Shown piece by piece: positions 345 to 35,224 of a stretch of 64,000 bases of DNA. The stretch comes from a virus. Its lineage: Duplodnaviria > Caudoviricetes. Positions within the stretch are counted from its first letter, which is position 1. Every line of letters starts with the position of its first letter. A program made the translations under genes and the position numbers. The stretch is from IMG/VR virus record IMGVR_UViG_3300014205_000174. One strand, 5' to 3'. The notes under the pieces are model-generated. The model made no database searches and was not told where the DNA came from. It saw only the letters and a list, made by a program, of their open reading frames with translations.

Positions 345-3300
345 ATGGGCGTAACAAAGGCCACTAAAAATAAACCGACCAGTAAAAAGCCTTCTGCCGC
401 GAAGGCCGGTGTTGTATTGCCTGTACCGGCAACGCCAGCTCAATTGCGCCGTCGCTGGAATAAAAAAACTAGCCAGGTGGAAAAGCTGGCAAATAATATC
501 CAAAGCCTGCGGTATAATCTCACTACTGATATGAAGAGTGATGACCAGAAGGTGTTTCTGACGGCTCTTTGTGTAAAGTGCATGGAGCTTACTGGTGAGC
601 GTGTCGGCAATGACGAAAGCGCTGCTAATGGGCATAGGGGTATTACTGGATTGCTTAAATCCCAGGTAAAGGTAGAAGGTAATAAGGTTTCATTCCGGTA
701 TACCGGTAAGTCCGGGGTTAACCAGGATAAATCCGTAACGGATGAAAAACTCGCTGATGGCATACGTCGTGCGAAGGAAATATCCAAAGCGAAGTATCTT
801 TTTTGTACAGATGACGGGTTTAAGATAAAGAATGACCGCGTCAACAGGTATCTGGCTGACTTTGAGATTACGGCAAAGGACTTGAGGGGCTTTTCTGCCA
901 ACCGCTGGCTGATACAGAAGTTAGTGGCCAATGATATCGCTGACGAGGAGAAGGACAGAAAAAAAGACTTCAATGCATTTGCAAAGGTTGTTGCTGCGAA
1001 AGTGGGCCACGGTACCGGCATGCTGAAAAACCAATACCTCATACCGGGGTTGGAAAAGGCGTATGTAGAGGAAGGCAAAATAATAGACATCAAGGATATT
1101 GCCGGATATAAAAAAGGTGGTGGCGTTGAAAAGATGGAAAAGGGTGGTGTTGTGGCTAAAAAAGAATCCACTAAAAAACCAAGTCCCAGTGAACCTGCGG
1201 GAAAGACAATAAAATATTCCGAGTTTAAAGAAGATATCCAAACGTTTATATTTCAGTTCCTAGAGGATAGCGGGGCTCCGGATAAGATTCTCGATAACCT
1301 ATACCGCGCAAGGTTTGTGGTTAAGCCGTATCCTATAAAAAATATTTCTCCGGAAGTAAATGAGGCGTCCCTGGATAAAGACCGGGGTGTACAACATGCG
1401 GCAAAGTTCAAAAAAGACAAGTACCAGCCGGTAATATTTTTCAACAACAAACTGATTGATGGCTTCCACAGGGCCTATTCTGAAAAACAAAAGGGTGCAT
1501 CGGTTCTGTATGGTATCGAGCTGTCTGATGTTTTGCATGAAAAGAAGGCGGAGCTGAAGGCCGGCGGCCAGGTATCCAAGCCCGACCCATTTAACGAATG
1601 GTTTGCCGGCAGTAAAGTTGTCGATAGCAAGGGCCAGCCACTTATTGTTTATCATGGCACCGATGCTGAAAATATTACAACATTCAATATTGATTTAGTT
1701 CGCGATAAATTTGGTTTCTGGTTTTCTGACGATAAGGAGTTCTCGGAAATGTTTGGCACTACAGCCATACCGGTATACCTGTGCATTAAAAACCCGCATG
1801 TAATAAGCAAAGAAAAATGGGACGATATCCGACGTGCGCATGCAAAAGATGCAGTGTGGTTTGCATCATGGCGTGACCAGTTAATATCCAAAGGTAAAGA
1901 TGCGCTGATAATTGAAAGCAGCGATACGACCTTTGCTGGCACGAAAATACGTAATCCAGAAATTTATGCGGTATTCCATCCAACGCAAATAAAGCTTGCT
2001 GACGGCTCCAATACCACATTTGACGGCAACAACCCAGACATTCGATTTGAGAAGGGCGGCCATATATATCGCAGTGTTGGCATGGAAGGTTACCTGGTGG
2101 GTAAAAGCAGGTGTCCATATATCGGCAAAGAAAAAGAAATTGATGCTTACGACACGGATATCCGTTGCTTCGTTTCCGAAACCAACGATACCTACCGGTT
2201 TATTTATGTTGTAAACAAAAAGAATGTTTCCGTTCTTCATATTCAAAAGGAAGGTGCTGACTGGGTAATCCGCAATGCATTTACCTTAGAGCATCACCGC
2301 AGACATGGGTATGGCCGGAGTCTTTACCTTGAGGCGCAGAAACATTTGCGCAGAGTTGTATTTTCGTCCAATTTGAGCCAGGAAGGCAAGGCATTTAAAG
2401 AAAATGTTACTCTAGAAATGCATATTGGTAATAATACGGAAATCGGTAGGATTGACGATGAAACAGATACCCAGTTTCAGATAAAAGGAACGTGGTATGC
2501 AAAATGGATAATAAAGCCAGCGGCGGTCGCTGAAGATAATGAAGGTATACTTGTTCCGGATAAGATAAAGCCGACGATGATTATATCTGCATTTTCAAAT
2601 GAGATGGATTGGGATAAGGTAGAGCGGTATGCTGATATTATGAAGGAAAGTGGTATGGAGCATGGTTTCCCTGCTATATCTGGGTATCCTATTATTATTG
2701 ATGAAAACGAAATTGGAGACCAGTTTCTTACCGGTGAGGAAGTGTCTGAACATCATGTTGGTCAGTTAGCGTGGAAGGTAACCAACGGCCATCATCGTTC
2801 TTTGGGGGCCATAAAGGCAGCTCTGCCATGGATTGACGTTGAGCTTGATTATAGTACGGTAACTAACATGGAGCGCCATAAGCGCACAAACGGCAAGTAC
2901 TACGAATCTGGCGGCATTACCGAAGATGATGAACCGAAGTCGACATTAGACCAGCTAAAAGAAGATGTTTCCGCTTGCAGGAACTTTGACATTTTCAGGG
3001 GCAGAATTGCCCTGCGCGAACCAGATGAGGTTAACGAGATAATGACTGTCCTTGGTCTTGAAAAAGCAACTACCAGGGAAATTGGTGATATTAATCTGAA
3101 AAAGCTGAAGGACTTTTATACTCAGGAAAAGCGCATAGTAAATGAGCGTCGTAAGATAAGGGGCAATGAGGCGGCAGCTATCCGCACTGAAAAAAATGTT
3201 GAGAATATCTTTGACCTTGCTAAAATATTAGGTGACGACATGGATAAGGCTGTACTGGATTACGAAGAAAAGAAAGCCGCTATCAAATACCCGGTACAAT

Positions 3301-4814
3301 TAATTACCGTGGAGCCATCTATTTTAGATGTGCTCAATGGCCTTTCGGATAAAGGATGCAGGGCGCTGATAGTTGGTGGCGCTGTCCGTGACGCTATTCT
3401 GGGCATCACCCCGAAAGATATAGACATAGAGGTTTATAACATAACCTACGCAGACCTGAGCGAATACTTATCGCAGTACGGGAGAGTTAACCTTGTTGGT
3501 AAGAACTTTGGGGTTATTAAGTTTAATCCGGCAGCAGGTGGAATGGAATACGACTTCTCCGTTCCAAGAAGGGAAAACAAGATAGGTGTAGGCCACAAAG
3601 AATTTGAAGTGACCTTTGATACCACCATGACCATAAAGGATGCCGCAATGCGCAGGGACTTTACGTTTAACTCCCTTGCGTATGACCCGGTATCCAATAC
3701 GGTGTATGATTACTTTAATGGCCTGATGGATATCCGGCTCAAAGTAATAAGGCACACGTCTGAAAAGTTTACTGAGGACGCGCTGAGAATACTCAGGGCC
3801 ATGCAGTTCCAAGCCAGATTTGATTTCACCATCGCTGAGGATACCAATACCTTAATGCGGGAAATGCTTACTACCTCTGATGAGTTTGCATCCTTGCCAA
3901 AGGAGCGTGTTTTCGAAGAGTGGTACAAGTGGGCCTCAAAGGGCGTCCGCCACGACCTTATATTCTCGTTCATGCGGGATTGCGGCCTTATCGACTGCTA
4001 CCCGGTATTAAAGGCGCTGGCAGAAACGCCGCAGGACGCTGTGTATCACCCGGAGGGGAATGTGGAGGTGCACACTACCTTATGTCTGACTTATATGGAC
4101 TCTATCTTGTCCCGGATGCCGGATATCCCGGCTGACGAGAAAGTAGTGCTGGTAATGTCCACGCTGCTTCATGATGTCGGTAAGCCTGCAACTACAGAGG
4201 AGCAGCTAAAGAATGGCAGAATGACGATTACAAGCAATGGCCATGAGGCATTGGGCGGTAAGATGTGTCATGATTTTTTACCTTCGCTTGGGTTCCATAA
4301 AGATTTGGTAGACCCTATAGCTAATATTGTAGCTAATCATTTGGCTGGCGTGAATATTACCATGATACCGCATGAGAGTGGCAGGGTAAAGGCAGTAAAG
4401 AAGCTAAGTAAGCGATTGTACCCGGCAACTATCCAGCAATTGCTGCATGTGATGGATGCAGACAGTAATGGGCGTGGCTGGGAAGAATACAAAGAACCTA
4501 CCGGTGCAAAGGAGCTGACGACCATAGCCGCAGACATAAACGTGACGGACAGGCCCTATGAATTTATACTTCTGGGGCGTCACCTTATAGAAGCAGGGCT
4601 AAAGCCGTCTCCTGCATTCGGGGAGATTTTACGTAAAGCAAACGAGGCCCAGTTAAACGGCGAATTTAATGATATTACCGGTGGCAGGCAGTGGCTGAAG
4701 GATAATTTGGATAGCTTTGTCAATGGCGGCATTATTAGTGCACCAGTTGATTTGTTTGCCGACTCGCCTGGTGCACCAGTTGTAAATAGTGCAGTGCCGG
4801 ACTTATTTCAATAA
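345..4814 (+). CDS. polyvalent polyprotein: topoisomerase IB catalytic domain + ParB-like + ART-PolyVal ADP-ribosyltransferase + GNAT + ParB-like + class II CCA-adding nucleotidyltransferase with HD domain
   Basis: TopoIB residues RVGN, GKSG, KDLR, GH, QY. ParB-like LIDGFHR and VTNGHHR. ART: SKVVDSKGQPLIVYHGT..GFWFS..PVYLCIKNP..QIK. GNAT: HRRHGYGRSLY. CCA: VGGAVRD..KDIDIEV, RRDFTFN, EDALRILRAMQF. HD: YHPEG..HT..LLHDVGK. Confidence 0.9.
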   Translation: MGVTKATKNKPTSKKPSAAKAGVVLPVPATPAQLRRRWNKKTSQVEKLANNIQSLRYNLTTDMKSDDQKVFLTALCVKCMELTGERVGNDESAANGHRGITGLLKSQVKVEGNKVSFRYTGKSGVNQDKSVTDEKLADGIRRAKEISKAKYLFCTDDGFKIKNDRVNRYLADFEITAKDLRGFSANRWLIQKLVANDIADEEKDRKKDFNAFAKVVAAKVGHGTGMLKNQYLIPGLEKAYVEEGKIIDIKDIAGYKKGGGVEKMEKGGVVAKKESTKKPSPSEPAGKTIKYSEFKEDIQTFIFQFLEDSGAPDKILDNLYRARFVVKPYPIKNISPEVNEASLDKDRGVQHAAKFKKDKYQPVIFFNNKLIDGFHRAYSEKQKGASVLYGIELSDVLHEKKAELKAGGQVSKPDPFNEWFAGSKVVDSKGQPLIVYHGTDAENITTFNIDLVRDKFGFWFSDDKEFSEMFGTTAIPVYLCIKNPHVISKEKWDDIRRAHAKDAVWFASWRDQLISKGKDALIIESSDTTFAGTKIRNPEIYAVFHPTQIKLADGSNTTFDGNNPDIRFEKGGHIYRSVGMEGYLVGKSRCPYIGKEKEIDAYDTDIRCFVSETNDTYRFIYVVNKKNVSVLHIQKEGADWVIRNAFTLEHHRRHGYGRSLYLEAQKHLRRVVFSSNLSQEGKAFKENVTLEMHIGNNTEIGRIDDETDTQFQIKGTWYAKWIIKPAAVAEDNEGILVPDKIKPTMIISAFSNEMDWDKVERYADIMKESGMEHGFPAISGYPIIIDENEIGDQFLTGEEVSEHHVGQLAWKVTNGHHRSLGAIKAALPWIDVELDYSTVTNMERHKRTNGKYYESGGITEDDEPKSTLDQLKEDVSACRNFDIFRGRIALREPDEVNEIMTVLGLEKATTREIGDINLKKLKDFYTQEKRIVNERRKIRGNEAAAIRTEKNVENIFDLAKILGDDMDKAVLDYEEKKAAIKYPVQLITVEPSILDVLNGLSDKGCRALIVGGAVRDAILGITPKDIDIEVYNITYADLSEYLSQYGRVNLVGKNFGVIKFNPAAGGMEYDFSVPRRENKIGVGHKEFEVTFDTTMTIKDAAMRRDFTFNSLAYDPVSNTVYDYFNGLMDIRLKVIRHTSEKFTEDALRILRAMQFQARFDFTIAEDTNTLMREMLTTSDEFASLPKERVFEEWYKWASKGVRHDLIFSFMRDCGLIDCYPVLKALAETPQDAVYHPEGNVEVHTTLCLTYMDSILSRMPDIPADEKVVLVMSTLLHDVGKPATTEEQLKNGRMTITSNGHEALGGKMCHDFLPSLGFHKDLVDPIANIVANHLAGVNITMIPHESGRVKAVKKLSKRLYPATIQQLLHVMDADSNGRGWEEYKEPTGAKELTTIAADINVTDRPYEFILLGRHLIEAGLKPSPAFGEILRKANEAQLNGEFNDITGGRQWLKDNLDSFVNGGIISAPVDLFADSPGAPVVNSAVPDLFQ

Positions 4815-4834
4815 CACACGCTTAATCACACAAT

Positions 4835-7336
4835 ATGTCAGTAAAAACTTTACCAAAACCAAATAGGGGTACTGGGTACCTGGCTGGCAAGCAGAACGGC
4901 AAGACTGTTATACATACAGATGGCGACCTTGGGGGCGTACTCGTTGGTGCGCGGCACAGCGATGGCGGCATACCTGCTGTCAACGAGAGCACCAATAAGC
5001 CGCTGGAGGTGGAAAAGGGTGAGGTGAGCATTACGTCTAAGGCCGTGACCAATACTGAAGTATATAATTTTGATGGGCAAGAAATGACCGCTAAGGAAGT
5101 GCTTTCGAAAATAAATAGTGACGCCGGCGGGGTTAAGTTTAAAAAGGGCGGTACGGTTGAGCGTACCTATAGCCTGAATGGTCAGCAAATGACCGATAAG
5201 CAGATTGAGCAAAAACTGCATGGGAATAAAATTGAAGACAAAAGGGACGGGAATAAAATTTCCTACTCCGGTGGCGAAATTATAATTACCCGACCCGCTG
5301 TTATGTCTAAGGAGACCCATAATTTCTGCGGTAGTCAGCTTACGAACTTTCAAATCCTATCTAAGATTAATGTGGATAGTGGCGGCATAGCCTTTGCGGA
5401 TGACAATGCAGACGTATCAGTAAAGCCTAATGACCTGGAATATGAATTTGGTGGGAAGGTCATGAAGGGATATGAGATAGTTGAGCAATATGCATGCGGA
5501 TGTAAAATGGAAGATGGTGGTGTGGTGAATGATTATCCAACTGTAAAGTTATCAACCATCAAGAAGCTGCAATGGTATGTGCGTCCTGACGGCAAGACAG
5601 AGTTACAGGCGGAAATTAATGGGGAGCATAAAAAAGCCGTATTTGATGATGCCGATAATAAAATAGGCTATTATGGTTTATGTAATACTGCGGACAATGC
5701 ACTTAAGTTACTTGAAAAGTATTTTAAGATAAAAATAAAACGCGATAAGTATCCTGGGTACTTTGATTCTGGTGGTGAAATAGCAGACACCGACTATGAA
5801 ATAATTCCCGCAGAGAATAGCGGGCGTGGCGTGACAGAAAAAGTTCGTATTACTGATGATAAAGGCAGGGTGGCCGAATATTCTATTTTCGGCGGCGATA
5901 TACCTTATGCCATACAGTGTGCGCGGCAATCATTAAAGTGGCAGCAGGAAATTGACGATATAGTTGGCCCTGAAGGGGATTTATCTGAATATGCACAGTC
6001 TATTTATGACAATGCGCTGACCAGGTATAAAAAAGCGGATGATAGAAAGAAAAAGGAACTATTGCGTAAGCTCAGGTTTAATATATCCATGATTAGGCCC
6101 GTTCTTAATTCAGTACAGGCTGGCAGTATTGAAAACATAGAATTTGTCCGCGCCGGTGAAAAATTCCTCAAAGACCACGCCCCTGATTTCATGAGACATG
6201 GTGGTGTCGCAGAAGGCGGCAGGCAGTCAAACTTTGATTTCCTCAGTGAAAAAATATCCTCTGGTGATTTAATCATTGACCGTAATGGCATAGTGAGAAC
6301 ATACGCATGGCATAGCGGTGATGGCAGGCTCGTCGTTGAATCCGATAATATACCAAGCCGCCATGGGCCAGTTACTATGTACAAAATAAAAGTAGACGGT
6401 GTTGAAAAAGAAACTACCGATGATTACGCCATGGCCCTGAATCATACGCGGGAATATTTCTTAAAGCATCAGGCTGGCTCTCACATGGAAGAAGGGGGCG
6501 TTATAGAAAGCCTTACTCCTCAGCAGCAATATGACATAGGGAATTACCTGCCAGTTAGAATAGGAGGCATAAATAATGGGTGTGCCTGGGCTGACGTATT
6601 TAATGACGAGGGCCTGCTATCTTCGGAGCCGAAGTCGCTGGATTACTATTATCAGATTGCCATTAAAATAAAACCCGGAGCGGCATACCTTGAAAGGGAG
6701 GGGTTCTGGGATGATTTCGCAGACCGCATGGAAGAGTTAGGGCGGCCGTTGTCGTATGAGCAAGGCGGTAGGCTCCAGGGTCGGGAAAATTGCACTTACG
6801 AGCAACTGGTTGCAAAATATCCAATGCGTGACGGCTATAGCATCGGCAATCTCCAGCTCGATAATGCTGCAACGGGTAAGACTACACCCTATTGCGTTGT
6901 AAATAAAAAAACCGGTGTATTAAATAAGCATGGGCGTGATGAAATGGAAGTTGTAGCATATTACCAGCAGATAGGGCAAAATACACTGCAACTATGCGAA
7001 AATCCATATGCTGCACGTAGCCAGGAGAAAGCGTTGGATAAGGACGTTATTGAAGATGTGTCCATAGAAATGGCTGATGTTAGTCAGGATAGTATGGAAG
7101 ATAATATAGCAGAATGCATAAAAAACCAGAATGCTCTTTACAAAAAAGTCAAGGCATCGAACTGGGACAGGCTTGCGAAAGCTACTTTTTATAGCATGAA
7201 ACTTACTGAAGCAAAGGCTAATTTCAGTACGTATCAAAATATAGAAGGGGAATTCATGTCGGAACTAATGAATATGTGCGATTGGTTGATGAACAAGTGG
7301 CAGAATGCGCTTGACGAGGTGCGGGTGCAAAAGTAG
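4835..7336 (+). CDS. modular polyprotein of unknown function with GG-delimited modules
   Basis: 833 aa; duplicated N-terminal unit (GE..IT..AV..E..NF.G..T..ILSKIN.D.GG); separators FKKGG, YEFGG, MEDGG, FDSGG, MRHGG, MEEGG, YEQGG. Confidence 0.75.
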   Translation: MSVKTLPKPNRGTGYLAGKQNGKTVIHTDGDLGGVLVGARHSDGGIPAVNESTNKPLEVEKGEVSITSKAVTNTEVYNFDGQEMTAKEVLSKINSDAGGVKFKKGGTVERTYSLNGQQMTDKQIEQKLHGNKIEDKRDGNKISYSGGEIIITRPAVMSKETHNFCGSQLTNFQILSKINVDSGGIAFADDNADVSVKPNDLEYEFGGKVMKGYEIVEQYACGCKMEDGGVVNDYPTVKLSTIKKLQWYVRPDGKTELQAEINGEHKKAVFDDADNKIGYYGLCNTADNALKLLEKYFKIKIKRDKYPGYFDSGGEIADTDYEIIPAENSGRGVTEKVRITDDKGRVAEYSIFGGDIPYAIQCARQSLKWQQEIDDIVGPEGDLSEYAQSIYDNALTRYKKADDRKKKELLRKLRFNISMIRPVLNSVQAGSIENIEFVRAGEKFLKDHAPDFMRHGGVAEGGRQSNFDFLSEKISSGDLIIDRNGIVRTYAWHSGDGRLVVESDNIPSRHGPVTMYKIKVDGVEKETTDDYAMALNHTREYFLKHQAGSHMEEGGVIESLTPQQQYDIGNYLPVRIGGINNGCAWADVFNDEGLLSSEPKSLDYYYQIAIKIKPGAAYLEREGFWDDFADRMEELGRPLSYEQGGRLQGRENCTYEQLVAKYPMRDGYSIGNLQLDNAATGKTTPYCVVNKKTGVLNKHGRDEMEVVAYYQQIGQNTLQLCENPYAARSQEKALDKDVIEDVSIEMADVSQDSMEDNIAECIKNQNALYKKVKASNWDRLAKATFYSMKLTEAKANFSTYQNIEGEFMSELMNMCDWLMNKWQNALDEVRVQK

Positions 7337-7338
7337 GT

Positions 7339-8309: not shown

Positions 8310-8330
8310 TGAATGTAAGATTTGAAATTA

Positions 8331-8374
8331 AAAAGTGGCAATGAAATAGTAAACTAAACTATCACATTGCCACT
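8331..8374 (-). terminator. intrinsic terminator downstream of the tRNA
   Basis: AGTGGCAATG...CATTGCCACT inverted repeat followed by a T run on the - strand. Confidence 0.65.
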
Positions 8375-8384
8375 CACATCATCG

Positions 8385-8546: not shown

Positions 8547-8583
8547 ATTTATTTAAAGAACTTGTTTGATTTGAATAGTGTAT

Positions 8584-8600
8584 TGCAAAGTGCGTGCCAA
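8584..8600 (-). promoter_or_regulatory. sigma-54-type -24/-12 promoter upstream of the tRNA
   Basis: TTGGCACGCACTTTGCA matches YTGGCACG-N4-TTGCW. Confidence 0.7.
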
Positions 8601-8627
8601 ACTTTCTACCTGTCGCACAAAGGTTTG

Positions 8628-21135: not shown

Positions 21136-23271
21136 ATGCGCATAGCAAAAGATGTTTTACAATCTTACAATCTATTCGACAGCTTGCCGCCGGAATTCAA
21201 GTCCCTGTCCGGTGGTGATTACTTTGTTATGTACTATACTACCAATGAAAAAGAACTTAAGCTTAATGTCTTCGACTATGATGTAGTTAAGCAGGTGAAT
21301 GTTTCATTGTACAGGGGGTTGTCCGCCAAGGAAGATAAGAACAATGTGATATCATTAAACATTGCTTACTTTTCGGGAGATACATACGAGACAAGGGACG
21401 GTATTTTCTTCCTGTTCTTAAGGACATATAATTCCGCCGAATCCGTTGAAGCTTTCTACAGGGATATAATGCAGCAGGATACGGCCAGCGATATAAATAT
21501 TTCCATTAACGCAGTAACGGATATATACTCTCCGGATGACTTCCGTAAGTCACTTTCTTATTTCTCGCCAAACAGGATTCAGTCCATCATGTTCGTATAT
21601 GACATGGTAGCTGACGCCTTTAAGCGCCGGCTGTCTACTGATTTATACGGTGGGATGATAAAGAAGGTGGTGAATCTCATTAAGTACGATGGCGGGGTTC
21701 TAAATGAGTTAGGGGGTGAGCTGAGGTACATGGTAATTGGTGAGCACAGCAGGTTGAATAAAAATCAAGCTGTAAAGCTGAATGCTGCAAAAATCCTGCT
21801 TCGCTCCATGCAGTCCCCGGAGGAAATATATAAGAGTACCGGCTGGTACTTCAGTGATAAAGACGGAAAGTGGAGAACGAATATTTCCGACGATGAGGCT
21901 GCAATATCGGAAATATATCTTTCGGACGTGCAGGGCCGGAAATTATACAGGCCCTCTGCCGGTAATTCAACCAACGAGGATGTTTTATCCCTTGTGGGCA
22001 AACCAGAAAGGATATATGCATACAACTACCAGGGTAAATTGTCGGAAGTATTAAAGCACCCGACGCTGTATGAATATTACCCGCAACTAGCAAACCTGCC
22101 AATACTTTATTTTGTATCAGACGACACTACAAGGGATTTCCCGCAGGAATTCTATTATGCGCCTAACGACCGTGGCGGATACATAGTGATAAACGGTTCG
22201 AACCTGTACGGCCCTATACTATCTACGTTGCTGCATGAGACACAGCATGCGGTGCAGCGCATAGAAGATTTTGCTACAGGTGGTAATGAGTTTGTTGCGC
22301 GGTTTGTAGCTTCTATTGGCGGTAAATCAGTGAGAAAAGTATTCTCATCAGTAAACAGACTGGAAAGATTTTTTAAAGAAAACTTACTTTCTGATAGTAG
22401 TCGCATAGAATTACTAGCCAAACTAAATAAAGAAAGACCAAGAAATGATTCTGCGGCATCGGCATTGAATCAGTTGCTGCCATTAATGCAGGACTTTGAG
22501 ACCTACAGCCTTTCGTACAAGAACATAAACTTTCTTCTGGCGATATACATTGCGGAAAATAAAGATTTCGCCAATAATGGAATAGTGATATACCTGAATA
22601 ATATAATTGGGGATATCATTTTTGACCTGATAGGGAATATTTCGTCCGGGTATAATGAAGCGATGGTAGTAATGACCAAGCTGTCCGGCGATGGGTTTAA
22701 GAAGGATGATATACAAACGATACTATTTGCCAGCTATCAGAACCTGTACGGGGAAATGGAAAGCCGCTCGGTACAGGCGTCGAGGTATGTGACCAGTGAG
22801 TATAAGAATTATTTTTGGCTGACGGAATGGGAGCGCTCTCCTATAAAGCAATTGGTAGTCATTGATGGTATAGAGACTGTTATAGATACCAAGAGCATAA
22901 AGGCCGCAGTAGAAAAGAAGGGCGATGAATACGTAATGCACTTTTCTAAGTCAGCCTCCTGTGTTCCCTTCCTGCATGAATTGGGGCACATGGTTCATGA
23001 CGGCATGATTCAGGCGGGGTTTGGGCCAGATATTGAAAAGTGCTACGAGAATAATTATTCATTTGAAGACATTGGGGAGTATTTCGTTAGTCGCTTCCTT
23101 GGGTACATAGGCAAAAACATTGACGACGATAATATTGCCAATGATATGAAAGTGGATTTCTCCATTGACTCGGAGCCCTGCATGAATGAATTGTTTGATT
23201 CTTTTTTTACGGAGTCTGGTTACGATGAGCGACTGGAGTATTTACAAACGTTGTTAGTTTCTATTATATAA
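21136..23271 (+). CDS. polyvalent protein: LPD23-like domain + zincin metallopeptidase (MPTase), with a second HExxH
   Basis: IYKSTGWY..DGKWRTNISD; LLHETQHAVQRIEDFATGGN; YQNLYGEMESR; FLHELGH. Confidence 0.8.
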   Translation: MRIAKDVLQSYNLFDSLPPEFKSLSGGDYFVMYYTTNEKELKLNVFDYDVVKQVNVSLYRGLSAKEDKNNVISLNIAYFSGDTYETRDGIFFLFLRTYNSAESVEAFYRDIMQQDTASDINISINAVTDIYSPDDFRKSLSYFSPNRIQSIMFVYDMVADAFKRRLSTDLYGGMIKKVVNLIKYDGGVLNELGGELRYMVIGEHSRLNKNQAVKLNAAKILLRSMQSPEEIYKSTGWYFSDKDGKWRTNISDDEAAISEIYLSDVQGRKLYRPSAGNSTNEDVLSLVGKPERIYAYNYQGKLSEVLKHPTLYEYYPQLANLPILYFVSDDTTRDFPQEFYYAPNDRGGYIVINGSNLYGPILSTLLHETQHAVQRIEDFATGGNEFVARFVASIGGKSVRKVFSSVNRLERFFKENLLSDSSRIELLAKLNKERPRNDSAASALNQLLPLMQDFETYSLSYKNINFLLAIYIAENKDFANNGIVIYLNNIIGDIIFDLIGNISSGYNEAMVVMTKLSGDGFKKDDIQTILFASYQNLYGEMESRSVQASRYVTSEYKNYFWLTEWERSPIKQLVVIDGIETVIDTKSIKAAVEKKGDEYVMHFSKSASCVPFLHELGHMVHDGMIQAGFGPDIEKCYENNYSFEDIGEYFVSRFLGYIGKNIDDDNIANDMKVDFSIDSEPCMNELFDSFFTESGYDERLEYLQTLLVSII

Positions 23272-25891: not shown

Positions 25892-27919
25892 ATGGATATC
25901 GCAAAAATAAATCAAGACATTGCTACGATAGAAAAAGCGCTAGGCAACCCAGCTCTTAATGAGGCTATGAAAAAAGCCCTTGGCAATAAGCTTGCGGCTT
26001 TGAAATCGCAGATTACCACGGCTGCTGAGGCTTCTGAAAAGAAAGAGGAAGCTGTACAGGATAAATCCGATGATGAGGAAAAAAAGCTGAGAGATGTAAT
26101 AATGAAGATATGGAAGGGCCTGGAAAACAAACAGGTTCCGGAAGCTGCCAAGGGCGCACTTCGTAAGAAACTAAAAGACGCGGAGGCTCGTGTAATTGAA
26201 ATTGAAAAAGAAAAGGAAGCTGCGGCTAAAGCTAAGGAGGACGCGGCCAAAGAAGTAAAAGAGGTAGTTAAAACAGTGGATGCCGCAATAGCTGATGTAA
26301 AAAAGGGTAAAACCGTAAAGAAGGGCTCGATAAAAAAAGCAGGGGAAAAGCTAAAGAAAGTAGCTGCCGGTAAAAAGGAAAGGACGCAAGCTGCTACTAC
26401 GCATGAGAAAAAGTACAAAAAAGAAATCGATGAGCTACTAGCTTTCGTGAAGAATAATCCGAAGCTTAAGGTTGCGTATAAGGGCTATAGCAAAGATAGC
26501 CTGGAGCGTGACGCCAAGCGCCATGCTCTTCCTCCGGGCAAGCGCATATCTGAGTCTGGCAATGTGTACTACGAGCGTCGTAGGAACCGTGTTGACCTGA
26601 CTAAGCGTAAAAGATATCCTTTCTTTGAGGATGGTGGGGAGTTGAAGGAGCATACTGCTACTATTCCAAATAACTATGTATTTGCAACTCCGGAAGAGGT
26701 GTGGGACGGGTGGAATCTGAAACAGCGCAAACACTTCATGGATGACCATAATTTAATCTTCGAGATACAAAAATTAGCAAATAAGTCATTTGCTAAAATA
26801 TCAGCAACGGAATTAGCTGAAGGGGAAGGTTTTGTTGATAAGCTTACAGAGCATATAAAAAGAGGCCAGTACAAATCCGGCGGCAAGCTTAAGCAGGGCA
26901 ACCCGCAGGGTGAGCATTACAGCCAGATGGCGGACAAAAAGAAAGACGCAAAGCCCGTTGGTTGGAGGTTTACCGAAGAGTTTATCAATAGCCGTGCAGG
27001 AAAACGCCTGAATCTTACTTCTTCCAGTAAGCCAACTGATGAGCAGATAGAAAAATACAAGGATAAGGCCTGTGGCGATGGTCGTTGTGTTTACCAGGAA
27101 AAGAGGGCCGACCATAGCGATAAGAATGCGAAGCGTTATTTAGCAGATGGTGGTGTTGTTGGCGACGGGAAATGCACGTACAAAGCATTTTATAAGGGGA
27201 AAGAGATTGATGTAAAAGCAGATACCCAGTACGCTGCTCAGAAAACTGCTGCCACTCACTTTAAGGCTAAAAAAAGTTACGATGTGAATGTTGTAATAAT
27301 GCACGATGGTGATAAAGAGGTGGTGCACTCTACTGCCGGGTTTAAAAAAGGCGGCAAGCTTAAGCAGGGCAACCCCCAGGGCGAGCACTACAGTCAACAG
27401 GCGGACAAAAAGAAAGACGCCAAGCCAGTTGGCTGGAGATTTACCGAAGAGTTTATCAATAGCCGTGCAGGAAAACGCCTGAATCTTACTTCTTCCAGTA
27501 AGCCCACCGAAGAACAGGTAGATAAATACAAGGATAAAGCTTGCGGTGACGGGCGTTGCGTTTACCAGGAAGCAAGAGCTGACCATAGTGACAAAAATGC
27601 GAAGCGTCATTTAGCAGATGGTGGCGATATAGAACATGGTTATAAAAAAGGCGGTAAAATCAAGCAGGGTAGCCCGCAGGGTGAGCATTACACAGAAGGA
27701 GCTGATGCCGTTAAGCATTCAAAGCCTGTGGGCTGGCGCTTTACAAATAAGTTCCTGAAGACACCTGCCGCAAAGCTAAGAAACCTTACTGCCCGCAGTG
27801 CGCCAACGAAGGCGGATATTGCAAAGTACAAGGACAGGACGTTTAAGGATGGGGCGCGTTATCTTTACCAGGAAGCACGTGCCGACCATAGTGACAAACA
27901 AAAGAAGTCTGGGTTATAA
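25892..27919 (+). CDS. Lys-rich coiled-coil polyprotein with three copies of a basic module of about 90 aa
   Basis: K[LI]KQG.PQGEHY..KPVGWRFT..YQE.RADHSDK x3; separators FEDGG, YKSGG, LADGG, FKKGG, LADGG, YKKGG. Confidence 0.8.
   Translation: MDIAKINQDIATIEKALGNPALNEAMKKALGNKLAALKSQITTAAEASEKKEEAVQDKSDDEEKKLRDVIMKIWKGLENKQVPEAAKGALRKKLKDAEARVIEIEKEKEAAAKAKEDAAKEVKEVVKTVDAAIADVKKGKTVKKGSIKKAGEKLKKVAAGKKERTQAATTHEKKYKKEIDELLAFVKNNPKLKVAYKGYSKDSLERDAKRHALPPGKRISESGNVYYERRRNRVDLTKRKRYPFFEDGGELKEHTATIPNNYVFATPEEVWDGWNLKQRKHFMDDHNLIFEIQKLANKSFAKISATELAEGEGFVDKLTEHIKRGQYKSGGKLKQGNPQGEHYSQMADKKKDAKPVGWRFTEEFINSRAGKRLNLTSSSKPTDEQIEKYKDKACGDGRCVYQEKRADHSDKNAKRYLADGGVVGDGKCTYKAFYKGKEIDVKADTQYAAQKTAATHFKAKKSYDVNVVIMHDGDKEVVHSTAGFKKGGKLKQGNPQGEHYSQQADKKKDAKPVGWRFTEEFINSRAGKRLNLTSSSKPTEEQVDKYKDKACGDGRCVYQEARADHSDKNAKRHLADGGDIEHGYKKGGKIKQGSPQGEHYTEGADAVKHSKPVGWRFTNKFLKTPAAKLRNLTARSAPTKADIAKYKDRTFKDGARYLYQEARADHSDKQKKSGL
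26870..27610 (+). repeat. 270-nt intragenic direct repeat (26870-27139 and 27341-27610)
   Basis: Near-identical DNA copies, each starting at a GG motif. Confidence 0.85.
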
Positions 27920-27961
27920 TTGTAGTTTCTGAGTTTAAGAATAAAAACAAACCAAAAAAAT

Positions 27962-28387: not shown

Positions 28388-28408
28388 AAATTTTAAATTA
28401 TCTATAAC

Positions 28409-31400
28409 ATGACCACAACTATACGTACATATACCATAGCGGATTATCATAGCAACAACAGCGGACAACATTATGGTTGTTTTGATGTTGAATTGTCGTG
28501 GGATAAGAACGAGAAGTGGTGTGTGCGTGCCGGTGGGGACTTGGATAAGTATGCTCCTCTTTATAAAAATACCCATAATAGGTCTATCAAAGACGCTCTG
28601 GCGATATATAAGCGCCAGGTGGCAAAGGCAAAAAAAGATTCGGGTAAAGAAGGTGAAGAGTGGATGACGTCTCGCTATGATGAGTATGTCGAAGCTGATG
28701 CAAAAGATAATGCATCGTTAGCTGAAGGTGGTCAGGTAGGGCCTGCACCAGAGATGACCGAAGACCAGCGCATAGCATCTATTATTATTCAGCAATTGGG
28801 TGGTCGCAACAGGCTGAATATAATGACAGGTGCATATAATTTCTATGCAGTAAAAAAAGGCGTTGCTTTCAGGATTAAAAACCAGAAGGCCAACTATATA
28901 AAAATAGTATTGGAGCCCACCGACCTATATGCCATTGAGATTGGCCGCATCAGGGGCAATACATACAAGATAGTGTATGAACATAGCGGTATTTACAATG
29001 ACCAGTTAAAAGGCATCATTGAGAAGTATACCGGTATGTACCTTTCTTTGAAGGATGGGGGCAGGATAGATGTAAATGACGATGACCATAATCAGGACTT
29101 GGAGCATTTGAAAAAAGAGGCTATTGCCAATGCAAAAAGGTACGGTCGCAATAAGGCATTTGCATATCTTGTTCTTGTAGAAAAAGAATACGATGGGGTA
29201 AAGCCAACCCGTGTGGATATACAGTTAAAATCCGGGTTTGAATTAATGCCGCAATCTTATCGTGATGCTTTTGATATAATTTACGATACATCGGCTGAAA
29301 ATGAAGAAAAAAAATCGGCACCAGCGGCACCATCTTCGTCAGAATCATTTAAGCCAACGGTTGGCCAGGTATTCCACAGTAATTCAAGTGGCAAGGATTT
29401 TGAAATTACCGACATTGATGAAGATGGCTGGATAACTACTTACCAGGTAGGGAAACCACACCAGATTCAGTACATGGATAAATCAAATACACCATCCTTC
29501 CTTATGTACATGAGAAGGGGCGCGTTTGAGTTGATTAATAAAGATGCAACCCCTATCAGCGACAGTGACTACATTTGCCGCATAGGCAGTGAGATAGTAA
29601 TTAAAAAGTTAGAATACGACAGGAATGTGAAAATGAAGCTTATGCAAATAATTCCTTTGAAAGAGGGGGGCATTGAGGCTGGCATGGGTAAATACACGTA
29701 TAAATTTGTTGGTAGTAAGGACAGGGTGAAATACATTACTGAATCTGCATTGAGAGGGATGATATATGCTAATCAAATTGTTTTTATTAAACAATTAGAA
29801 GATGGCGGCCCTGTTGATATGACGGAGCGGGAGTTCCTTGATAAATATTTTGGGGTTAACGTTTTCCCCAAGGAGATTACCGACATGTTTGAAATTGAAA
29901 ATAAATCCTCATCAAATAAAGATAAAGTAGCAGCGTACATTGATGACCTAAAGCAAAGGGGTTTTACGGTAAAAAAGAAATCGTACAGTGATTTTGTTTC
30001 TATCATGGGCGCAAAAAAGAAGATGGCTGCCGGCGGCCCTGTGTCTTCCATGGACGATGAGATTTTAGATTACATCTTCCGTAATTACCCTGACAAGGAG
30101 TTTAATGACAAGGAATTCATTTCCATGATTCACGCTATATTCTCAACTAAAATAGAGAACAGCACTATTTCTGATAAAGACATTCAGGCTGCAATGAACA
30201 GGTCTCTGGTTAGTAAGGCTAAGCAATATAAAACTGAGTTCGGGAAAACCGTGCTCGGGTTTGAGTCTATTAGCGCCAAGGGCTTTGAACAATACCAAGG
30301 CTGTCCGATTATTTATTTCTCTGAGCTGGTAGATATTTCAGATAGCTTTATGACCTGCTCAGGTATCTTATTTGAAGGCGAAATCGTAAATGGCAGCGAA
30401 TGCTTTGATGATTGGTTTGCAAATGAAGAGGACGCATTAGATGTAGCCTATAAGATGGCCAATGATGTACCGGTGTACGAGGGAGGCAATGAGCCGTATG
30501 CTGATGGCGGAGAATTGGAAAGGAAAGCTGCCGCTGTAAGAAAAGCAGTAGAAATTGCAGGAATTGCTAATAGCAACAATATCCGCGCATCTAATCTGAC
30601 ATTGAAGCAGTATTCAGAAAAAATATTTGATGCGACTAAGATTGCATACCCCGTATCTGACCTTGCGCTTGCTTACGAGGCTATGAAGAGTACTGGCTAT
30701 GCGGACGGCGGCCAGGTAACTGGTGCGGCTAAGGTTTTAGTGCAGGGGTATCCGTATTTCCTTAAAAAAATAGACAGCACGCATCTGTACGTGACCAACA
30801 CGGAAAATGCTCCGGGTATGGCCTCTCATGTTGGCCAGTTCAAAGATGCAAAGGGTGACCAGGCTTTCTACAATGATATCAAGGATTGGCTTCAAGGTAA
30901 AATTGATATAGAGGGCCGGGAGTATGCGGATTTCTATGCTGATGGCGGCCAGGTTGATGGTGCCATTAAGGTTAGTATAGAAGGATATCCCTACTACCTT
31001 AAGAAAATAGACGTTACGCACCTGTTTGTATCTAATAACGAGCGCATGGAAGGCACTTGTTATCATATAGGTCAGTTCAGGACGCAAAATGGTGACCAGA
31101 CTTTCTATAATGATATCAAGGACTGGCTTAAAGGTAAAATCGATATAGCAGGAAGGGTATATGAGAAATTTTATGCTGATGGCGGTGAATTAGAAAGAAA
31201 GGCCGCCGCTATAAAAACTGCAATAGAAATAGCTGAAATTGCCAACAAAAATAATATCCGTGCATCGCACCTTACATTGAAACAGTATTCGGAGAAAATA
31301 TTTGATGCGACTAAGATTGCATACCCCATAGCAGACCTTGCGCTTGCTTATGAGGCTATGAAGAGTACGGGGTATAAGAATGGCGGAGAGCTTCCTGCCG

Positions 31401-34400
31401 GGGAATTTAAGAAAGCAGAAAAGGAGACGTTTGAAATATATGACGAAGAAAGTAAATTCGTAAGGGGCGAGAGTTTTTGGTTCGCATATAAAGAGCTTAA
31501 TGACGGGAAAGATATTCTTTGTGTTAGTTACGGTAAGAATCTACCGGATGATTCACTTCCTCCATATAGCTGTTCGGTTGATATTTGCCCACTACAGAAT
31601 ATCCTTAGTTACCAGAATGACGAAATTAAGACATTAGCTGACGCAGTTCGCCAGTTCTGGATAGAAATGATACCAACCGACAGGTTTACTATTTCTTATT
31701 TTAAAACACTGCAAGAAGCAAAGGAGTTTGCTGAAGACAAGATAAATATTAGCGAGGCGGTGGTATTAAGTAAGGAAGTAAAATGGATGAAGCCCGACAG
31801 CCTCGATTATATACTGTTTATACTCAATAATGGCTGGCTTATCAAAGGGGATTGCCAGGGTGGCGATAGTTTGTTGTTTAAGGTATACGAGCCGACTACC
31901 GGGCTTGACCAGCACGAGTCTGTTTCTGAGTTTATAATAGACGAAAAGAATACAATGATGGGCCTGGTTATCTCAAGAAAGAGTATGACAAGGCTTGAAT
32001 CTATTCCGGAAGCCTATAAGTGCATATACTCTGCTCTTCCTGAATTGAAAGAAGTGGGCAATCAAACGCCATTTGGATTATTTGTTGAGCTGAAAGATAT
32101 GTCGCCAGCTATGTTTGATGAGGCGGTAATTAATCAATACATGCTTGGCACAAAAGAGTCGTTAGACGCGAACTTCTGGTCTGATTTGGCTCATTTGTGG
32201 AAGACTAATAATCTTCGTTTTGAAAATAATAAATGGGTAAATACCGGCTTGTGGAGGACGGGTGCTTTTAAGGAAAGTAACACTAATCCTAAGACCGGTC
32301 ATGAGTTAACCGATGTTGATGTAACTGTGATATGTAGTTTAGCAAATAGCTATAACGTCACAGTGGCTGATATCAAAACAAATAATCCTGATTTCACCAC
32401 CTTTGAAATATATAACCAGAGAGGGAATAATTTCAAGGCGGGCGGGCAGATACCGGGACACTTTGCTTCCGGTAAAAATATGGAGGTGTTTGGGTATCAG
32501 ACGCAAAATTTCGATATCAGCAAGGCGCTTTGTAATCTGTTTACAGATATAATAAACAACAGCTCTCATACTGAGCAGTGGTGTATTAAGCATGCTGCCA
32601 TTGAATTTGATGATGTGCTGAGTATGGAGAAATATGTGGTTCGTACCGGTGAGGCTATACCTGGGGGCTTTAAGGAGGCTACAAAAGCTGCGCTTCTCGG
32701 CTGTAAATTATTACAAAAAGGAGGGTATGATGAAGTAGCTTCCACGACCATCATGTCCGACCATCTGCTTGAAATTGCCCGTCGCCTTCCTAAACAATAC
32801 CGTGACGGTGGGGTGGTAAAACAACATATTCTACAGATAGGCAATGATGCCGTTGCCCTTGATGCCCTGATACATGGCGATAGCCAATTGGAAGACTGGG
32901 TACAGTCAAGGATAGCCCGCGCTGCTACAGATATGGGTGATGTGGTTAACTACCTCAACTATGAGCTTGACGGTGACGGCATCGGTGGTGATGGGAAAGA
33001 ACCACATGTGGTCAAGTATATCGACCTTGATGGCTCCGATGACCAGGAGCCGAAAGAAATTATCGTTGAGGCCGTAACGCCGCATGAGGCAAGGGAGATT
33101 GTGCAGGAAGAGCTTGGCGATGACGGTATTGTTACGGGGGCGGTTCTTATCGATGATGATTACAAGGCCCCGGAAGCCGATATCCCGGCGGTAGCGGTAT
33201 CGGAGCCTGCGCCACAGGAAATGATGGCCCGTGGTGGCCTGATTGAAAAGGAAACCGACTATGCACCGTATGTCATAGCAGAAGGCGTTGCCTTTACGCT
33301 GATGGATAAGCATTTTCCAGAAAGCAGAGACCAGCAGGCTGCGGAGTATGCGGAAGAAATGGCTGATTACCTGTATAAAACGGCCCAGAAGCAGTACAAA
33401 GATTCTAATGCAACGTTAAAGCATAGTATAGGCAAGGGGTCAAACATAGGCCGTGACCGTTTTTACGGTATAATGGAGGGCTGGGGTGAGCTGTATATGC
33501 TCAAGCACCCATTCACTCCCGTTAAGGCATCTGCATCCATGGCCCGTGGCGGAATGATTGAGAAGGAGACCGGATATTTCCCGGACGCATTGGCGTCATT
33601 AGTTGCCGATGAAATTGTTGACGATAAATTCCCGGATAGCGACCCAGGGGATGCGACTGCTTATGCCGATGAAATGGCCGAACATCTTGTGACCACTGCG
33701 GAACTAATGTATAAAAACTCTAATTCTTCATTACGCAAGGCTATAGGTAGCGGTTCTGAAGAAGGCAGGGATAAGTTTGCCGCACTCATGAAGGTGTGGG
33801 CGGAGCTTTGGATGGTTGACCACCCGTTCGAGGAAACGGCGCTGGCGTATGCAAAGGGTGGCGAAGTACGCAATCTTAAGTTTGGCCGCGTGATGCATGA
33901 GTTTAAAGAAGGGAAACTAACTGACCGCTGGGGCAACAAGGTTACTGACCGTGGACAGGCCCTGGCTATTGCATATAGCTCTTCGTCTCCCAAGATGAAA
34001 GATGGCGGTGAAGTTAATGGTTGGGTCAAACAAAAGGAATGGCACGGCAATCCTTCATTAGGGTATGAAAGCTGGAAGAAGAATTTCAAAACGCCAGGCG
34101 GAAGAGCAGTGCCTGTTTATCTGTTTGGCAAAGAGGGTAAAGGCAAGAATACTATAATATATACTCAAGATGAGCAAGGTAAAACAATTCCTAGCGGGAA
34201 TACGTTTGATGCGCCCGACTGGAGTTATTGCGTATCTGCTGGGCCTAATAGCGACTATACTCATTCCGGTGGGTTTTATCCTGAGACGCCTTCATTGCAG
34301 GAGGCTATGGATAAAATAGATGCGCTGGATAAAATAAAAAGGTTAATATACGAAAGCGGCGGCACAATCGAGTTGGTGGAAAACACTTACGCTGACGGCA

Positions 34401-35224
34401 CAAGGTCATACAAGCTTGGTGACAAATACAGCGAAGACTTCGATTATGATGGGCTTATGGCCACTGGTTTATCCGCAGATGCAACATGGAGTATTGAAGA
34501 TTTAAAACTCCTGCAAAATAGTTTTACCGATGTAAATTATCATAAGGAGGCAGCATTGGTTGGTTCGGTTATAAAGGCATTGGGAAGAGGAGGGAAGCCT
34601 GCGGCAAAAGCACATATTAAATATCTTCACGAAAAGCTGATAGATAATATTACTGACGGCGCTGACGACCAATTACAGGATGGTGATGAGGTTTACGAAG
34701 TGTCATTGGAAGCTGTCCCAAATCACGACTTTGGCCCGGAAGCTCACGAGAGTTCTGTGCGTATTGCTAAGCATATGGTACCTGCAAAGAGCATAGATGA
34801 CGCTGTGCGCATAGTTCATGCGTTTTGCGTGGACAATGACCTGGGCGGCGGCAATTTTATCAATGCTAAGCTATATGTTGCTGGTGTTGAAATCGGACAT
34901 ATTTCATACAATGGGCGCGTGTGTGGCCTGAATGGTAAGCCTATGGTTTATGAAAAAGGTGGCGTATTGTCAGTAAGCAGTCTTCGTAGTAAAACAAAGG
35001 AGGAGCTTGCCCAGATGTACCAGGATAAGTTTGGACTTCCGGCTCTTCACCAAGATATAGGGACGCTGATTGCGGCATTGCACTTTGAAAAGCGCATAAA
35101 GAACCTGACTGACGCGGAGCGTGAATTTGCTGCCGATATTGAAGAAAAAATTCAGGATGCGGAGGATGCTATTGTGAAAGAGAATGGCGGGACAGTTGGC
35201 AAAACAGACAGCATCGCTACATAA
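28409..35224 (+). CDS. giant modular polyprotein (2271 aa) with at least 17 GG separators; includes a DUF6496-like module
   Basis: YADGG x4, MARGG x2, LAEGG, LKDGG, MAAGG and others; KFGRVMHEFKEGKL..KVTDRGQALAIAYS. Confidence 0.8.
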   Translation: MTTTIRTYTIADYHSNNSGQHYGCFDVELSWDKNEKWCVRAGGDLDKYAPLYKNTHNRSIKDALAIYKRQVAKAKKDSGKEGEEWMTSRYDEYVEADAKDNASLAEGGQVGPAPEMTEDQRIASIIIQQLGGRNRLNIMTGAYNFYAVKKGVAFRIKNQKANYIKIVLEPTDLYAIEIGRIRGNTYKIVYEHSGIYNDQLKGIIEKYTGMYLSLKDGGRIDVNDDDHNQDLEHLKKEAIANAKRYGRNKAFAYLVLVEKEYDGVKPTRVDIQLKSGFELMPQSYRDAFDIIYDTSAENEEKKSAPAAPSSSESFKPTVGQVFHSNSSGKDFEITDIDEDGWITTYQVGKPHQIQYMDKSNTPSFLMYMRRGAFELINKDATPISDSDYICRIGSEIVIKKLEYDRNVKMKLMQIIPLKEGGIEAGMGKYTYKFVGSKDRVKYITESALRGMIYANQIVFIKQLEDGGPVDMTEREFLDKYFGVNVFPKEITDMFEIENKSSSNKDKVAAYIDDLKQRGFTVKKKSYSDFVSIMGAKKKMAAGGPVSSMDDEILDYIFRNYPDKEFNDKEFISMIHAIFSTKIENSTISDKDIQAAMNRSLVSKAKQYKTEFGKTVLGFESISAKGFEQYQGCPIIYFSELVDISDSFMTCSGILFEGEIVNGSECFDDWFANEEDALDVAYKMANDVPVYEGGNEPYADGGELERKAAAVRKAVEIAGIANSNNIRASNLTLKQYSEKIFDATKIAYPVSDLALAYEAMKSTGYADGGQVTGAAKVLVQGYPYFLKKIDSTHLYVTNTENAPGMASHVGQFKDAKGDQAFYNDIKDWLQGKIDIEGREYADFYADGGQVDGAIKVSIEGYPYYLKKIDVTHLFVSNNERMEGTCYHIGQFRTQNGDQTFYNDIKDWLKGKIDIAGRVYEKFYADGGELERKAAAIKTAIEIAEIANKNNIRASHLTLKQYSEKIFDATKIAYPIADLALAYEAMKSTGYKNGGELPAGEFKKAEKETFEIYDEESKFVRGESFWFAYKELNDGKDILCVSYGKNLPDDSLPPYSCSVDICPLQNILSYQNDEIKTLADAVRQFWIEMIPTDRFTISYFKTLQEAKEFAEDKINISEAVVLSKEVKWMKPDSLDYILFILNNGWLIKGDCQGGDSLLFKVYEPTTGLDQHESVSEFIIDEKNTMMGLVISRKSMTRLESIPEAYKCIYSALPELKEVGNQTPFGLFVELKDMSPAMFDEAVINQYMLGTKESLDANFWSDLAHLWKTNNLRFENNKWVNTGLWRTGAFKESNTNPKTGHELTDVDVTVICSLANSYNVTVADIKTNNPDFTTFEIYNQRGNNFKAGGQIPGHFASGKNMEVFGYQTQNFDISKALCNLFTDIINNSSHTEQWCIKHAAIEFDDVLSMEKYVVRTGEAIPGGFKEATKAALLGCKLLQKGGYDEVASTTIMSDHLLEIARRLPKQYRDGGVVKQHILQIGNDAVALDALIHGDSQLEDWVQSRIARAATDMGDVVNYLNYELDGDGIGGDGKEPHVVKYIDLDGSDDQEPKEIIVEAVTPHEAREIVQEELGDDGIVTGAVLIDDDYKAPEADIPAVAVSEPAPQEMMARGGLIEKETDYAPYVIAEGVAFTLMDKHFPESRDQQAAEYAEEMADYLYKTAQKQYKDSNATLKHSIGKGSNIGRDRFYGIMEGWGELYMLKHPFTPVKASASMARGGMIEKETGYFPDALASLVADEIVDDKFPDSDPGDATAYADEMAEHLVTTAELMYKNSNSSLRKAIGSGSEEGRDKFAALMKVWAELWMVDHPFEETALAYAKGGEVRNLKFGRVMHEFKEGKLTDRWGNKVTDRGQALAIAYSSSSPKMKDGGEVNGWVKQKEWHGNPSLGYESWKKNFKTPGGRAVPVYLFGKEGKGKNTIIYTQDEQGKTIPSGNTFDAPDWSYCVSAGPNSDYTHSGGFYPETPSLQEAMDKIDALDKIKRLIYESGGTIELVENTYADGTRSYKLGDKYSEDFDYDGLMATGLSADATWSIEDLKLLQNSFTDVNYHKEAALVGSVIKALGRGGKPAAKAHIKYLHEKLIDNITDGADDQLQDGDEVYEVSLEAVPNHDFGPEAHESSVRIAKHMVPAKSIDDAVRIVHAFCVDNDLGGGNFINAKLYVAGVEIGHISYNGRVCGLNGKPMVYEKGGVLSVSSLRSKTKEELAQMYQDKFGLPALHQDIGTLIAALHFEKRIKNLTDAEREFAADIEEKIQDAEDAIVKENGGTVGKTDSIAT
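30497..31372 (+). repeat. A-B-B-A module duplication (201, 237, 237, 201 nt)
   Basis: Each unit starts at YADGG (30497, 30698, 30935, 31172); the last ends before YKNGG at 31373. Confidence 0.85.

Follow-up and report, generated by a model that had tools for sequence, protein, structure and literature searches.

A seven-residue Gly-Gly tag at the module borders of polyvalent proteins marks a lineage of large bacterial viruses

What could a short Gly-Gly motif be doing that recurs again and again in a few very large proteins of a bacterial virus? The question is raised by virus record IMGVR_UViG_3300014205_000174 (Duplodnaviria; Caudoviricetes), of which a 64,000-nucleotide (nt) stretch of a 211-kb source contig, here called the window, was analyzed. 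Four of its open reading frames (ORFs), referred to by their first nucleotide as ORFs 345, 4835, 25892, and 28409, are punctuated by the motif, and the original prediction regarded them either as polyproteins cut into many small effectors or as carriers of a repeated capsid-loading tag. The data presented here support the description of these ORFs as multi-module proteins with one conserved tag at module borders, and the tag probably serves as a signal for cutting or loading. The two alternatives of the original prediction remain the best two, but the version of the first that invoked an adenain-type protease is not supported. The four ORFs and their tags, in window nucleotides, are as follows.

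345..4814, + strand: polyvalent protein, 1489 amino acids (aa), TopoIB / unknown / ART-PolyVal / weak GNAT-like plus unknown / CCA-adding enzyme with HD (Pfam)
1107-1127, 1134-1154, 1554-1574, 2046-2066, 2901-2921, 4716-4736, + strand: tags of ORF 345, 7 aa each
4835..7336, + strand: tagged multi-module protein, 833 aa, no Pfam or PHROG family (Pfam, PHROGs)
5138-5158, 5507-5527, 5762-5782, 6191-6211 (without the +2 hydrophobic residue), 6485-6505, 6755-6775, + strand: tags of ORF 4835
25892..27919, + strand: tagged multi-module protein, 675 aa, with module-plus-tag units repeated internally
26624-26644, 26870-26890, 27140-27160, 27341-27361, 27611-27631, 27641-27661, + strand: tags of ORF 25892, accounting for 6/6 of its G-G sites
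28409..35224, + strand: giant tagged protein, 2271 aa, ~17-20 modules
28718, 29048, 29795, 30023, 30497, 30698, 30935, 31172, 31373, 32432, 32798, 33224, 33539, 33848, 33995, 34349, 34949, + strand: starts of the strict tags of ORF 28409 (each running to +20)
29657, 32711, 34580, + strand: non-strict copies in ORF 28409

The tag and its place at module borders

The motif was counted in a loose form, [FYML]-x-x-G-G, and in a strict form of seven residues, [FYML]-x-x-G-G-x-[VILMT], across the 36 plus-strand ORFs of at least 150 aa in the window. ORFs 345-4814, 4835-7336, 25892-27919, and 28409-35224 contain 7, 7, 6, and 20 loose copies, 40 in all, where shuffling the residues of each protein leads to an expectation of 1.3, 1.2, 0.5, and 2.7 (z = 5.1, 5.5, 8.4, and 10.7, respectively). 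Thirty-six of the 40 are strict (V, I, L, M, or T at +2 after G-G; 1.5 expected) and four have no hydrophobic residue at +2, while in the remaining 32 window ORFs (10,653 aa) we counted 4 strict copies against 3.1 expected. When all 63 G-G sites of the four ORFs are considered, F, Y, M, or L is found at -3 from the first Gly in 40 and V, I, or L at +2 in 40, with 10-12 expected per register, and the registers adjoining -3 and +2 are at or under background. It is clear that the tag and its enrichment are real. The original prediction of about 35 copies, usually followed by x-[VIL], is thus borne out, as is its statement that the motif is not used this way in the helicase (1555 aa) or the MoxR protein (754 aa), which have one loose copy each.

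About 32-35 of the loose copies are true tags. LIVGG in ORF 345 (aa 1008; nt 3366-3386) was rejected as the GGxVRD motif of the nucleotidyltransferase within the PolyA_pol domain, and YEFGG in ORF 4835 (aa 203; nt 5441-5461) was rejected as the turn of a beta-hairpin inside a folded unit of the AlphaFold2 (AF2) model. The tag has no fixed Glu, this residue being present at -2 in 13-16% only. A DNA-level adapter was not found either, as there is no fixed hexamer at the tag G-G (GGCGGC 11, GGTGGT 6, GGTGGC 5, GGCGGT 5, plus others) and the preference for GGC/GGT is mild (p=0.017).

Its domain content makes ORF 345 a bona fide polyvalent protein, with Topoisom_I (residues 40-226), ART-PolyVal (427-559; PF18760, 4.6e-20), PolyA_pol (1008-1136), and HD (1263-1354) in 1489 aa; the part with PolyA_pol and HD is labeled tRNA nucleotidyltransferase by PHROGs. 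Its tags at residues 255, 264, 404, 568, and 853 lie between recognized domains. The original assignment had copies of the motif separating TopoIB, ParB, ART, GNAT plus ParB, and CCA domains, and Pfam confirms TopoIB, ART, and CCA as well as the inter-domain tags, but it does not detect ParB, its matches to GNAT are sub-threshold (E ~0.03), and one copy falls inside PolyA_pol. ORFs 4835, 25892, and 28409 are without Pfam matches, also if each segment between tags is scanned singly, and are placed in the polyvalent class by their architecture and by modules common to ART-PolyVal proteins. Module-plus-tag duplications can be seen by eye inside ORFs 25892 and 28409; self-BLAST finds no internal repeats at E≤1e-3. 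The last module is untagged in three of the four window ORFs.

Three lines of evidence locate the tag at the end of a module. In an all-against-all BLAST comparison, ends of high-scoring segment pairs (HSPs) within ±10 residues of a tag amount to 46%, against 15% for random positions, and peak just past G-G-x-hydrophobic. ORF 345 and its fused homologue P0005 (3,429 aa) have five modules in common in a changed order, and three of their HSPs end exactly on tag ends, at residues 261, 860, and 1464; ORF 345 itself ends ~25 residues past its last tag, with ORF 4835 beginning 20 nt on, at a place where the P0005 chain runs on. Where aligned proteins share <45% identity, the two glycines are 87% identical and indels become more frequent immediately after them, with a rate of 0.05 at G-G and 0.17-0.20 past it, which indicates that the tag belongs with the module upstream and that a variable linker lies downstream. 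Constraint was measured on such distant pairs, as P0002-P0004 (69% three-way identity) are too similar to inform. The original suggestion that the copies would lie in linkers of predicted structures is confirmed in part by one model, that of ORF 4835 residues 1-335: its folded units score >90 in the predicted local distance difference test (pLDDT), three of four copies (tags at 102, 225, and 310) are in linker segments below 50-60, and YEFGG at 203 is in a folded hairpin.

Tags also occur in tandem, 10-20 aa apart (127/819 spacings), and ahead of a short conserved C-terminal tail, as in a chain ending ...YNKGGIT-ESGTPDYLKFLIG, whereas only 3.8% of first tags lie ≤15 aa from the N-terminus. In small ORFs of loci L014, L021, and L050, the conserved tails past the last tag read E-S-G-T-P-D-Y-L-x-F-L-G-K; ...F-T-P-I-x-T-P-L-N, at the chain end; and ...D-E-D-A-K-I-M-Q-S-Q-F-G-K.... 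The tail of ORF 345 (window 4737-4811) has two P-(V)-D-L-F repeats and may be related to them.

Spread of the tag among relatives

The tag is found well beyond the window. Homologues of ORF 28409 on other contigs (P0002-P0006) have 13-24 copies each against 1.6-4.3 expected, the 149 proteins listed as sharing the N-terminal module of ORF 4835 have 1,024 loose copies against 165 expected, and a separate set of 119 ART-PolyVal proteins, a few of them untagged, has 876 strict copies against 46 expected. The consensus across the family is [FYM]-[AEK]-[EKD]-G-G-x-[VLI]. In total, the tag is kept in >1,000 copies across proteins below 50% identity. Untagged polyvalent proteins do exist, however, such as P0183, whose ART domain is 52% identical to that of the window and which has zero tags; its genome is that of a conventional tailed podophage with a Bbp16 adaptor, a tail protein, and NinG. 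Since such a similar ART domain occurs without tags in an ordinary podophage, the tag is lineage-specific rather than domain-bound: it marks a virus lineage, not a domain. In IMG/VR, ORFs 25892 and 4835 as single queries have no close relatives, and a profile of the N-terminal module of ORF 4835 found 41 loci. None of 50,697 deposited phage genomes has this module; in them, ORF 28409 has matches over 93 aa only and ORF 345 matches the stand-alone CCA enzyme only.

The N-terminal module just mentioned is present in ORF 4835 in two versions.

4871..5137, + strand: widespread unnamed module, ~90 aa, G-x-R-H-S-x-G-G-I ... E-x-E-G-G-E ... L-S-x-I-N-x-x-G-G-G-V-x-F, with a tag directly after
~5258-5419, + strand: degenerate second copy of the widespread module

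An exhaustive HMMER search with ORF 4835 returned 746 cluster representatives at E≤0.001, which have the N-terminal module of ~90 residues in common. Residues H41, E63, S91, and N94 are invariant, the module is modeled with pLDDT >90 in the 335-aa model, and it occurs only in tagged proteins (42/120), where it is usually terminal. It has no Pfam or PDB-sequence match, and fold comparison gave E>1 with Foldseek against the PDB and VIA-wide Z≤2.8 for the 335-aa model or ≤2.3 for the module alone. With no fold relative, the module therefore cannot be called a protease, a processor, a reader, or a peptide-binding domain, and we make no claim to a new fold.

Candidate readers and rival explanations

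Our tentative preference is that the tag is recognized by a factor which the virus lineage encodes, most likely a processing protease, for which ORF 51853 is the best candidate. A second and weaker protease candidate is ORF 21136.

51853..52650, + strand: stand-alone HExxH zincin-like protein, 265 aa, candidate tag reader or processing protease (motif, orthologues)
21136..23271, + strand: LPD23 protein (PF18838, 3.1e-9) with HExxH twice, HETQH at aa 367 and HELGH at aa 614 (Pfam, motif)

For this route, each polyvalent module would end in the seven-residue tag with a variable linker downstream, and the tag would be read in trans by a factor of the lineage, most likely a protease. The ORF 51853 zincin would cut at or just past the tag, such that a single translation product would give rise to many separate effectors (TopoIB, ART, the CCA-adding enzyme, and unknown modules) in the style of a viral polyprotein, and tandem tags or tags before short C-terminal tails would provide extra cuts that shed spacer or propeptide-like pieces. 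Reading in trans, a protease as the reader, ORF 51853 as that protease, and packaging or delivery of the products are all steps that we infer. Cleavage fits the border position and flexible setting of the tag, its G-G between hydrophobic anchors, the tandem tags and the tags before tails, the presence of the zincin, and the published precedents. ORF 51853 has the motif HE[FY][SA]H, with H188, E189, H192, E202, and D206 invariant in 25 orthologues. An orthologue is found in 26/26 related viral records, where it is the best-conserved core protein (47-48% identity) and lies in conserved order beside ATPase and capsid-candidate genes; Atlas leads are weak, to M78, M48, and DUF4344 zincins. The link between this protein and the tag is only one that we infer. 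ORF 21136 lies in the polyvalent operon and has one loose tag only, and no homologues of it were found in G001, G003, or G004 at E≤1e-4.

Several observations weigh against a processing protease in general and ORF 51853 in particular. In 28/159 relatives (~18%), the chain stops ≤2 residues past the tag (for example, ending ...RFKNGGYVRI or ...FAYGGAV), and a pure separator would have no use at the extreme C-terminus, although most of these tags belong to one module type, the ART end (...D-x-R-F-x-x-G-G), and the cases are therefore not independent. Small one- or two-module proteins carry the tag too. ORF 51853 has no match in Pfam, in NCBIfam, or, with a 4-sequence profile, among PDB sequences; fused zincin-polyvalent forms were not found, which is in itself weak evidence; the two zincin sub-clades have one and the same tag consensus, with no co-variation; and, the zincin being a core gene, its occurrence in all relatives has no discriminating power. 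Counting in favor of ORF 51853, the search for other proteases was negative, but its scope was the window ORFs (64 kb of the 211-kb contig) and five relatives (G001-G005, four of them at least 90% complete), and divergent protease folds could escape searches with hidden Markov models. Families C5 (PF00770) and C48 (PF02902) have no match at E≤0.1 in the five relatives and none in the window ORFs. In the same relatives, there is no match to S78 (PF04586) or S77 (PF03420), the S77 control matching nowhere either, to C39 (PF03412), for which the control was positive in 7 genomes, or to MPTase-PolyVal (PF18818) and ClpP, and Pfam finds no peptidase family in the four tagged ORFs or the other window ORFs. 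In the window, HExxH motifs are confined to ORFs 21136 and 51853.

Some of these observations would be easier to understand if the tag were an uncleaved docking or cargo-loading address that binds, in the manner of the cargo-loading peptides of encapsulins, a pocket of the capsid, scaffold, membrane, or portal. Giant proteins would thereby gain many attachment points or efficient loading, possibly with later use of the tag as a cut site, as in phage T4. This we consider possible but somewhat doubtful. That ~18% of relatives have the tag as their very C-terminus while it hardly ever lies at the N-terminus, and that single-module proteins retain it, would suit an address, the common tandem tags would raise avidity, two hydrophobic anchors flanking a Gly turn are appropriate for a pocket-binding peptide, and the capsid-targeting sequence (CTS) of T4 provides a precedent (PMC3012670, PMC5694885). 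The confinement of the tag to one lineage would imply that the receptor is lineage-encoded. That receptor is a hypothetical partner, however, as is, by analogy, the packaging of tagged proteins; the dependence of the C-terminal cases on the ART end counts here as well, and, with three of the four window ORFs ending untagged, not every module has an address. A dual role as address and cut site, as for the T4 CTS, would reconcile the evidence for cleavage with that for docking. It is unlikely, in our estimation, that the tag has no reader at all and is a passive structural joint, a beta-hairpin cap or hinge spread by module copying and shuffling that may aid in-frame exchange of cassettes. Such a joint would be consistent with the breakpoints at tags between ORF 345 and P0005, where module order differs, with the module-plus-tag duplications inside ORFs 25892 and 28409, and with the folded hairpin formed in the AF2 model by the closely similar Y-x-F-G-G-K-x-M. 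Yet ordinary linkers do not retain two hydrophobic positions and G-G over so many copies at such low identity, the same ART domain manages without a tag in the lineage of P0183, and the low pLDDT of the true tags indicates that they are no confident fold element; there is, moreover, no fixed DNA word, and a stretch of seven degenerate codons is not long enough for homologous recombination.

The enzyme class named in the original prediction, a clan-CE cysteine protease of the adenain/Ulp1 type that cuts after G-G as in adenovirus and African swine fever virus (ASFV), has a very low probability. Adenain cleaves at (M/I/L)-x-G-G, with a hydrophobic residue at P4. The tag is off this register by one: its anchor is at -3, or P5 if the cut follows G-G, in 40/63 sites, and the -2 register (P4) is occupied in 3 against ~10 expected. 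Together with the absence of C5 and C48 matches in the five relatives and the window ORFs, this leaves the analogy unsupported, even though the tag has G-G as its invariant core and ASFV pS273R cuts the core polyproteins pp220 and pp62 at Gly-Gly-Xaa (PMC7178854). The A32/Zot-like ATPase, the lack of a detectable terminase, and the inverted terminal repeats of three relatives do faintly recall non-tailed double-stranded DNA viruses. Double-glycine leaders with C39 export were rejected, as the tags are internal or C-terminal (see the 3.8% above) and PF03412 is absent from G001-G005.

Known systems, the lineage, and significance

The proteins described here are like known polyvalent proteins in being giant and in combining many unrelated conflict or takeover domains, here ART-PolyVal with TopoIB and a nucleotidyltransferase, with LPD23 in the neighboring ORF 21136. 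For that class, embedded peptidases (zincin MPTase, assemblin-like, and LonC) were predicted to free the domains by proteolysis (Iyer, Burroughs, Anand, de Souza, and Aravind 2017; PMC5512222). The window proteins differ in having a module-end tag and no detectable embedded MPTase-PolyVal, the only conserved protease-like gene standing alone. No module-end tag is described in PMC5512222, which nowhere uses the words "linker" and "glycine," and the tag was found in none of the literature searched. As ORF 345 has ART-PolyVal and belongs to this class, a delivered-effector role is plausible by analogy, and it is by analogy that the tagged proteins may be called virion cargo.

The recurrence of one short Gly-Gly-centered motif in large viral precursors resembles ASFV pp220/pp62 with pS273R and the adenovirus precursors with adenain, in which cutting yields many mature virion proteins. 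The differences are the anchor at P5 rather than P4, the lack of a clan-CE protease in the window ORFs and five relatives, the bacterial host, the putative nature of cleavage here, and the nature of the modules, enzymes or effectors in place of core-shell proteins. A short conserved peptide on diverse proteins, with several sites each, is likewise known from the internal proteins and Alt of T4 (CTS) and from giant-phage ejection proteins (SPN3US gp245 and phiKZ gp175; A/S-x-E), where it serves the loading and/or maturation cleavage of delivered proteins. In giant phages, prohead proteases process ejection proteins at short A-x-E motifs, of which one protein often has several (PMC5694885). The signals of T4 and of the giant phages are N-terminal propeptides, and a serine protease of the assemblin fold makes the cut after Glu, whereas the tag is C-terminal to its module and Gly-Gly-centered. 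Cargo-loading peptides of encapsulins are short, flexible, mostly C-terminal sequences of alternating Gly and hydrophobic residues on unrelated cargo enzymes, one per protein. The resemblance to the tag is one of description, as up to ~20 tags are present per polypeptide here. What is new is thus a module-end tag in the known polyvalent class, which is set apart from the adenain/pS273R sites by its register, from those of T4/phiKZ by residue type and position, and from double-glycine leaders by its location.

The lineage and the window have a gene order in common: the polyvalent ORFs, MoxR, the giant tagged ORF, ORF 41547, the A32/Zot-like ATPase (ORF 42665), ORF 44607, and ORF 51853. Its members are IMG/VR contigs of 50-102 kb, many rated complete, and three (G015, G020, and G021) have inverted terminal repeats. 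Terminase_6N and a protein-primed polymerase were not detected in five complete relatives, nor was an HK97-type protease in the complete relatives. PHROGs identified one glycosyltransferase and nothing else among ten large ORFs of G003, and the proteins of the lineage are nearly all unmatched. Some neighboring genes of the window should also be recorded.

9692-10234: HNH / His-Me homing-endonuclease-like ORF
17200-19464: MoxR-type AAA+ gene with Hom_end and LAGLIDADG_3 matches (residues ~316-383) ahead of AAA_5; 754 aa long where relatives have 449-470 aa, with the look of an intein or endonuclease insertion
35295-36635 and 56780-58069: two TnpB / IS200-IS605-type transposase genes, the first 39% identical to Microcystis and Nodularia phage copies
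37939-38526: GH73 glucosaminidase, endolysin-like, also at the syntenic place in L001
41547-43552 and 44607-45353: A32/Zot/FtsK-like P-loop ATPase (ORF 42665) next to two conserved unknowns

Polyvalent proteins are regarded as the first weapons that a phage or plasmid delivers into a cell, and the release and packaging of their domains is the puzzle addressed here. A seven-residue module-end signal with >1,000 copies offers a mutable and testable handle on it, predicts exact cut or binding sites, and shows where modules begin and end for hundreds of functionally uncharacterized domains. Should it be a code for loading or processing, proteins of choice could be packaged with it into virus particles. 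The findings also point to a nearly unannotated lineage of large bacterial viruses and to a new zincin family as a candidate maturation enzyme. In the most far-reaching version, which we regard as improbable, the tag would be the universal module address of an uncharted lineage of large bacterial viruses (~70-211 kb; with an A32/Zot-like ATPase, some inverted terminal repeats, and no recognizable terminase, portal, or HK97-type genes), and the ORF 51853 zincin would load the modules and then cut them. If true, any domain that gains the seven-residue tag would become a deliverable cassette, and the tag a plug-and-play cargo code.

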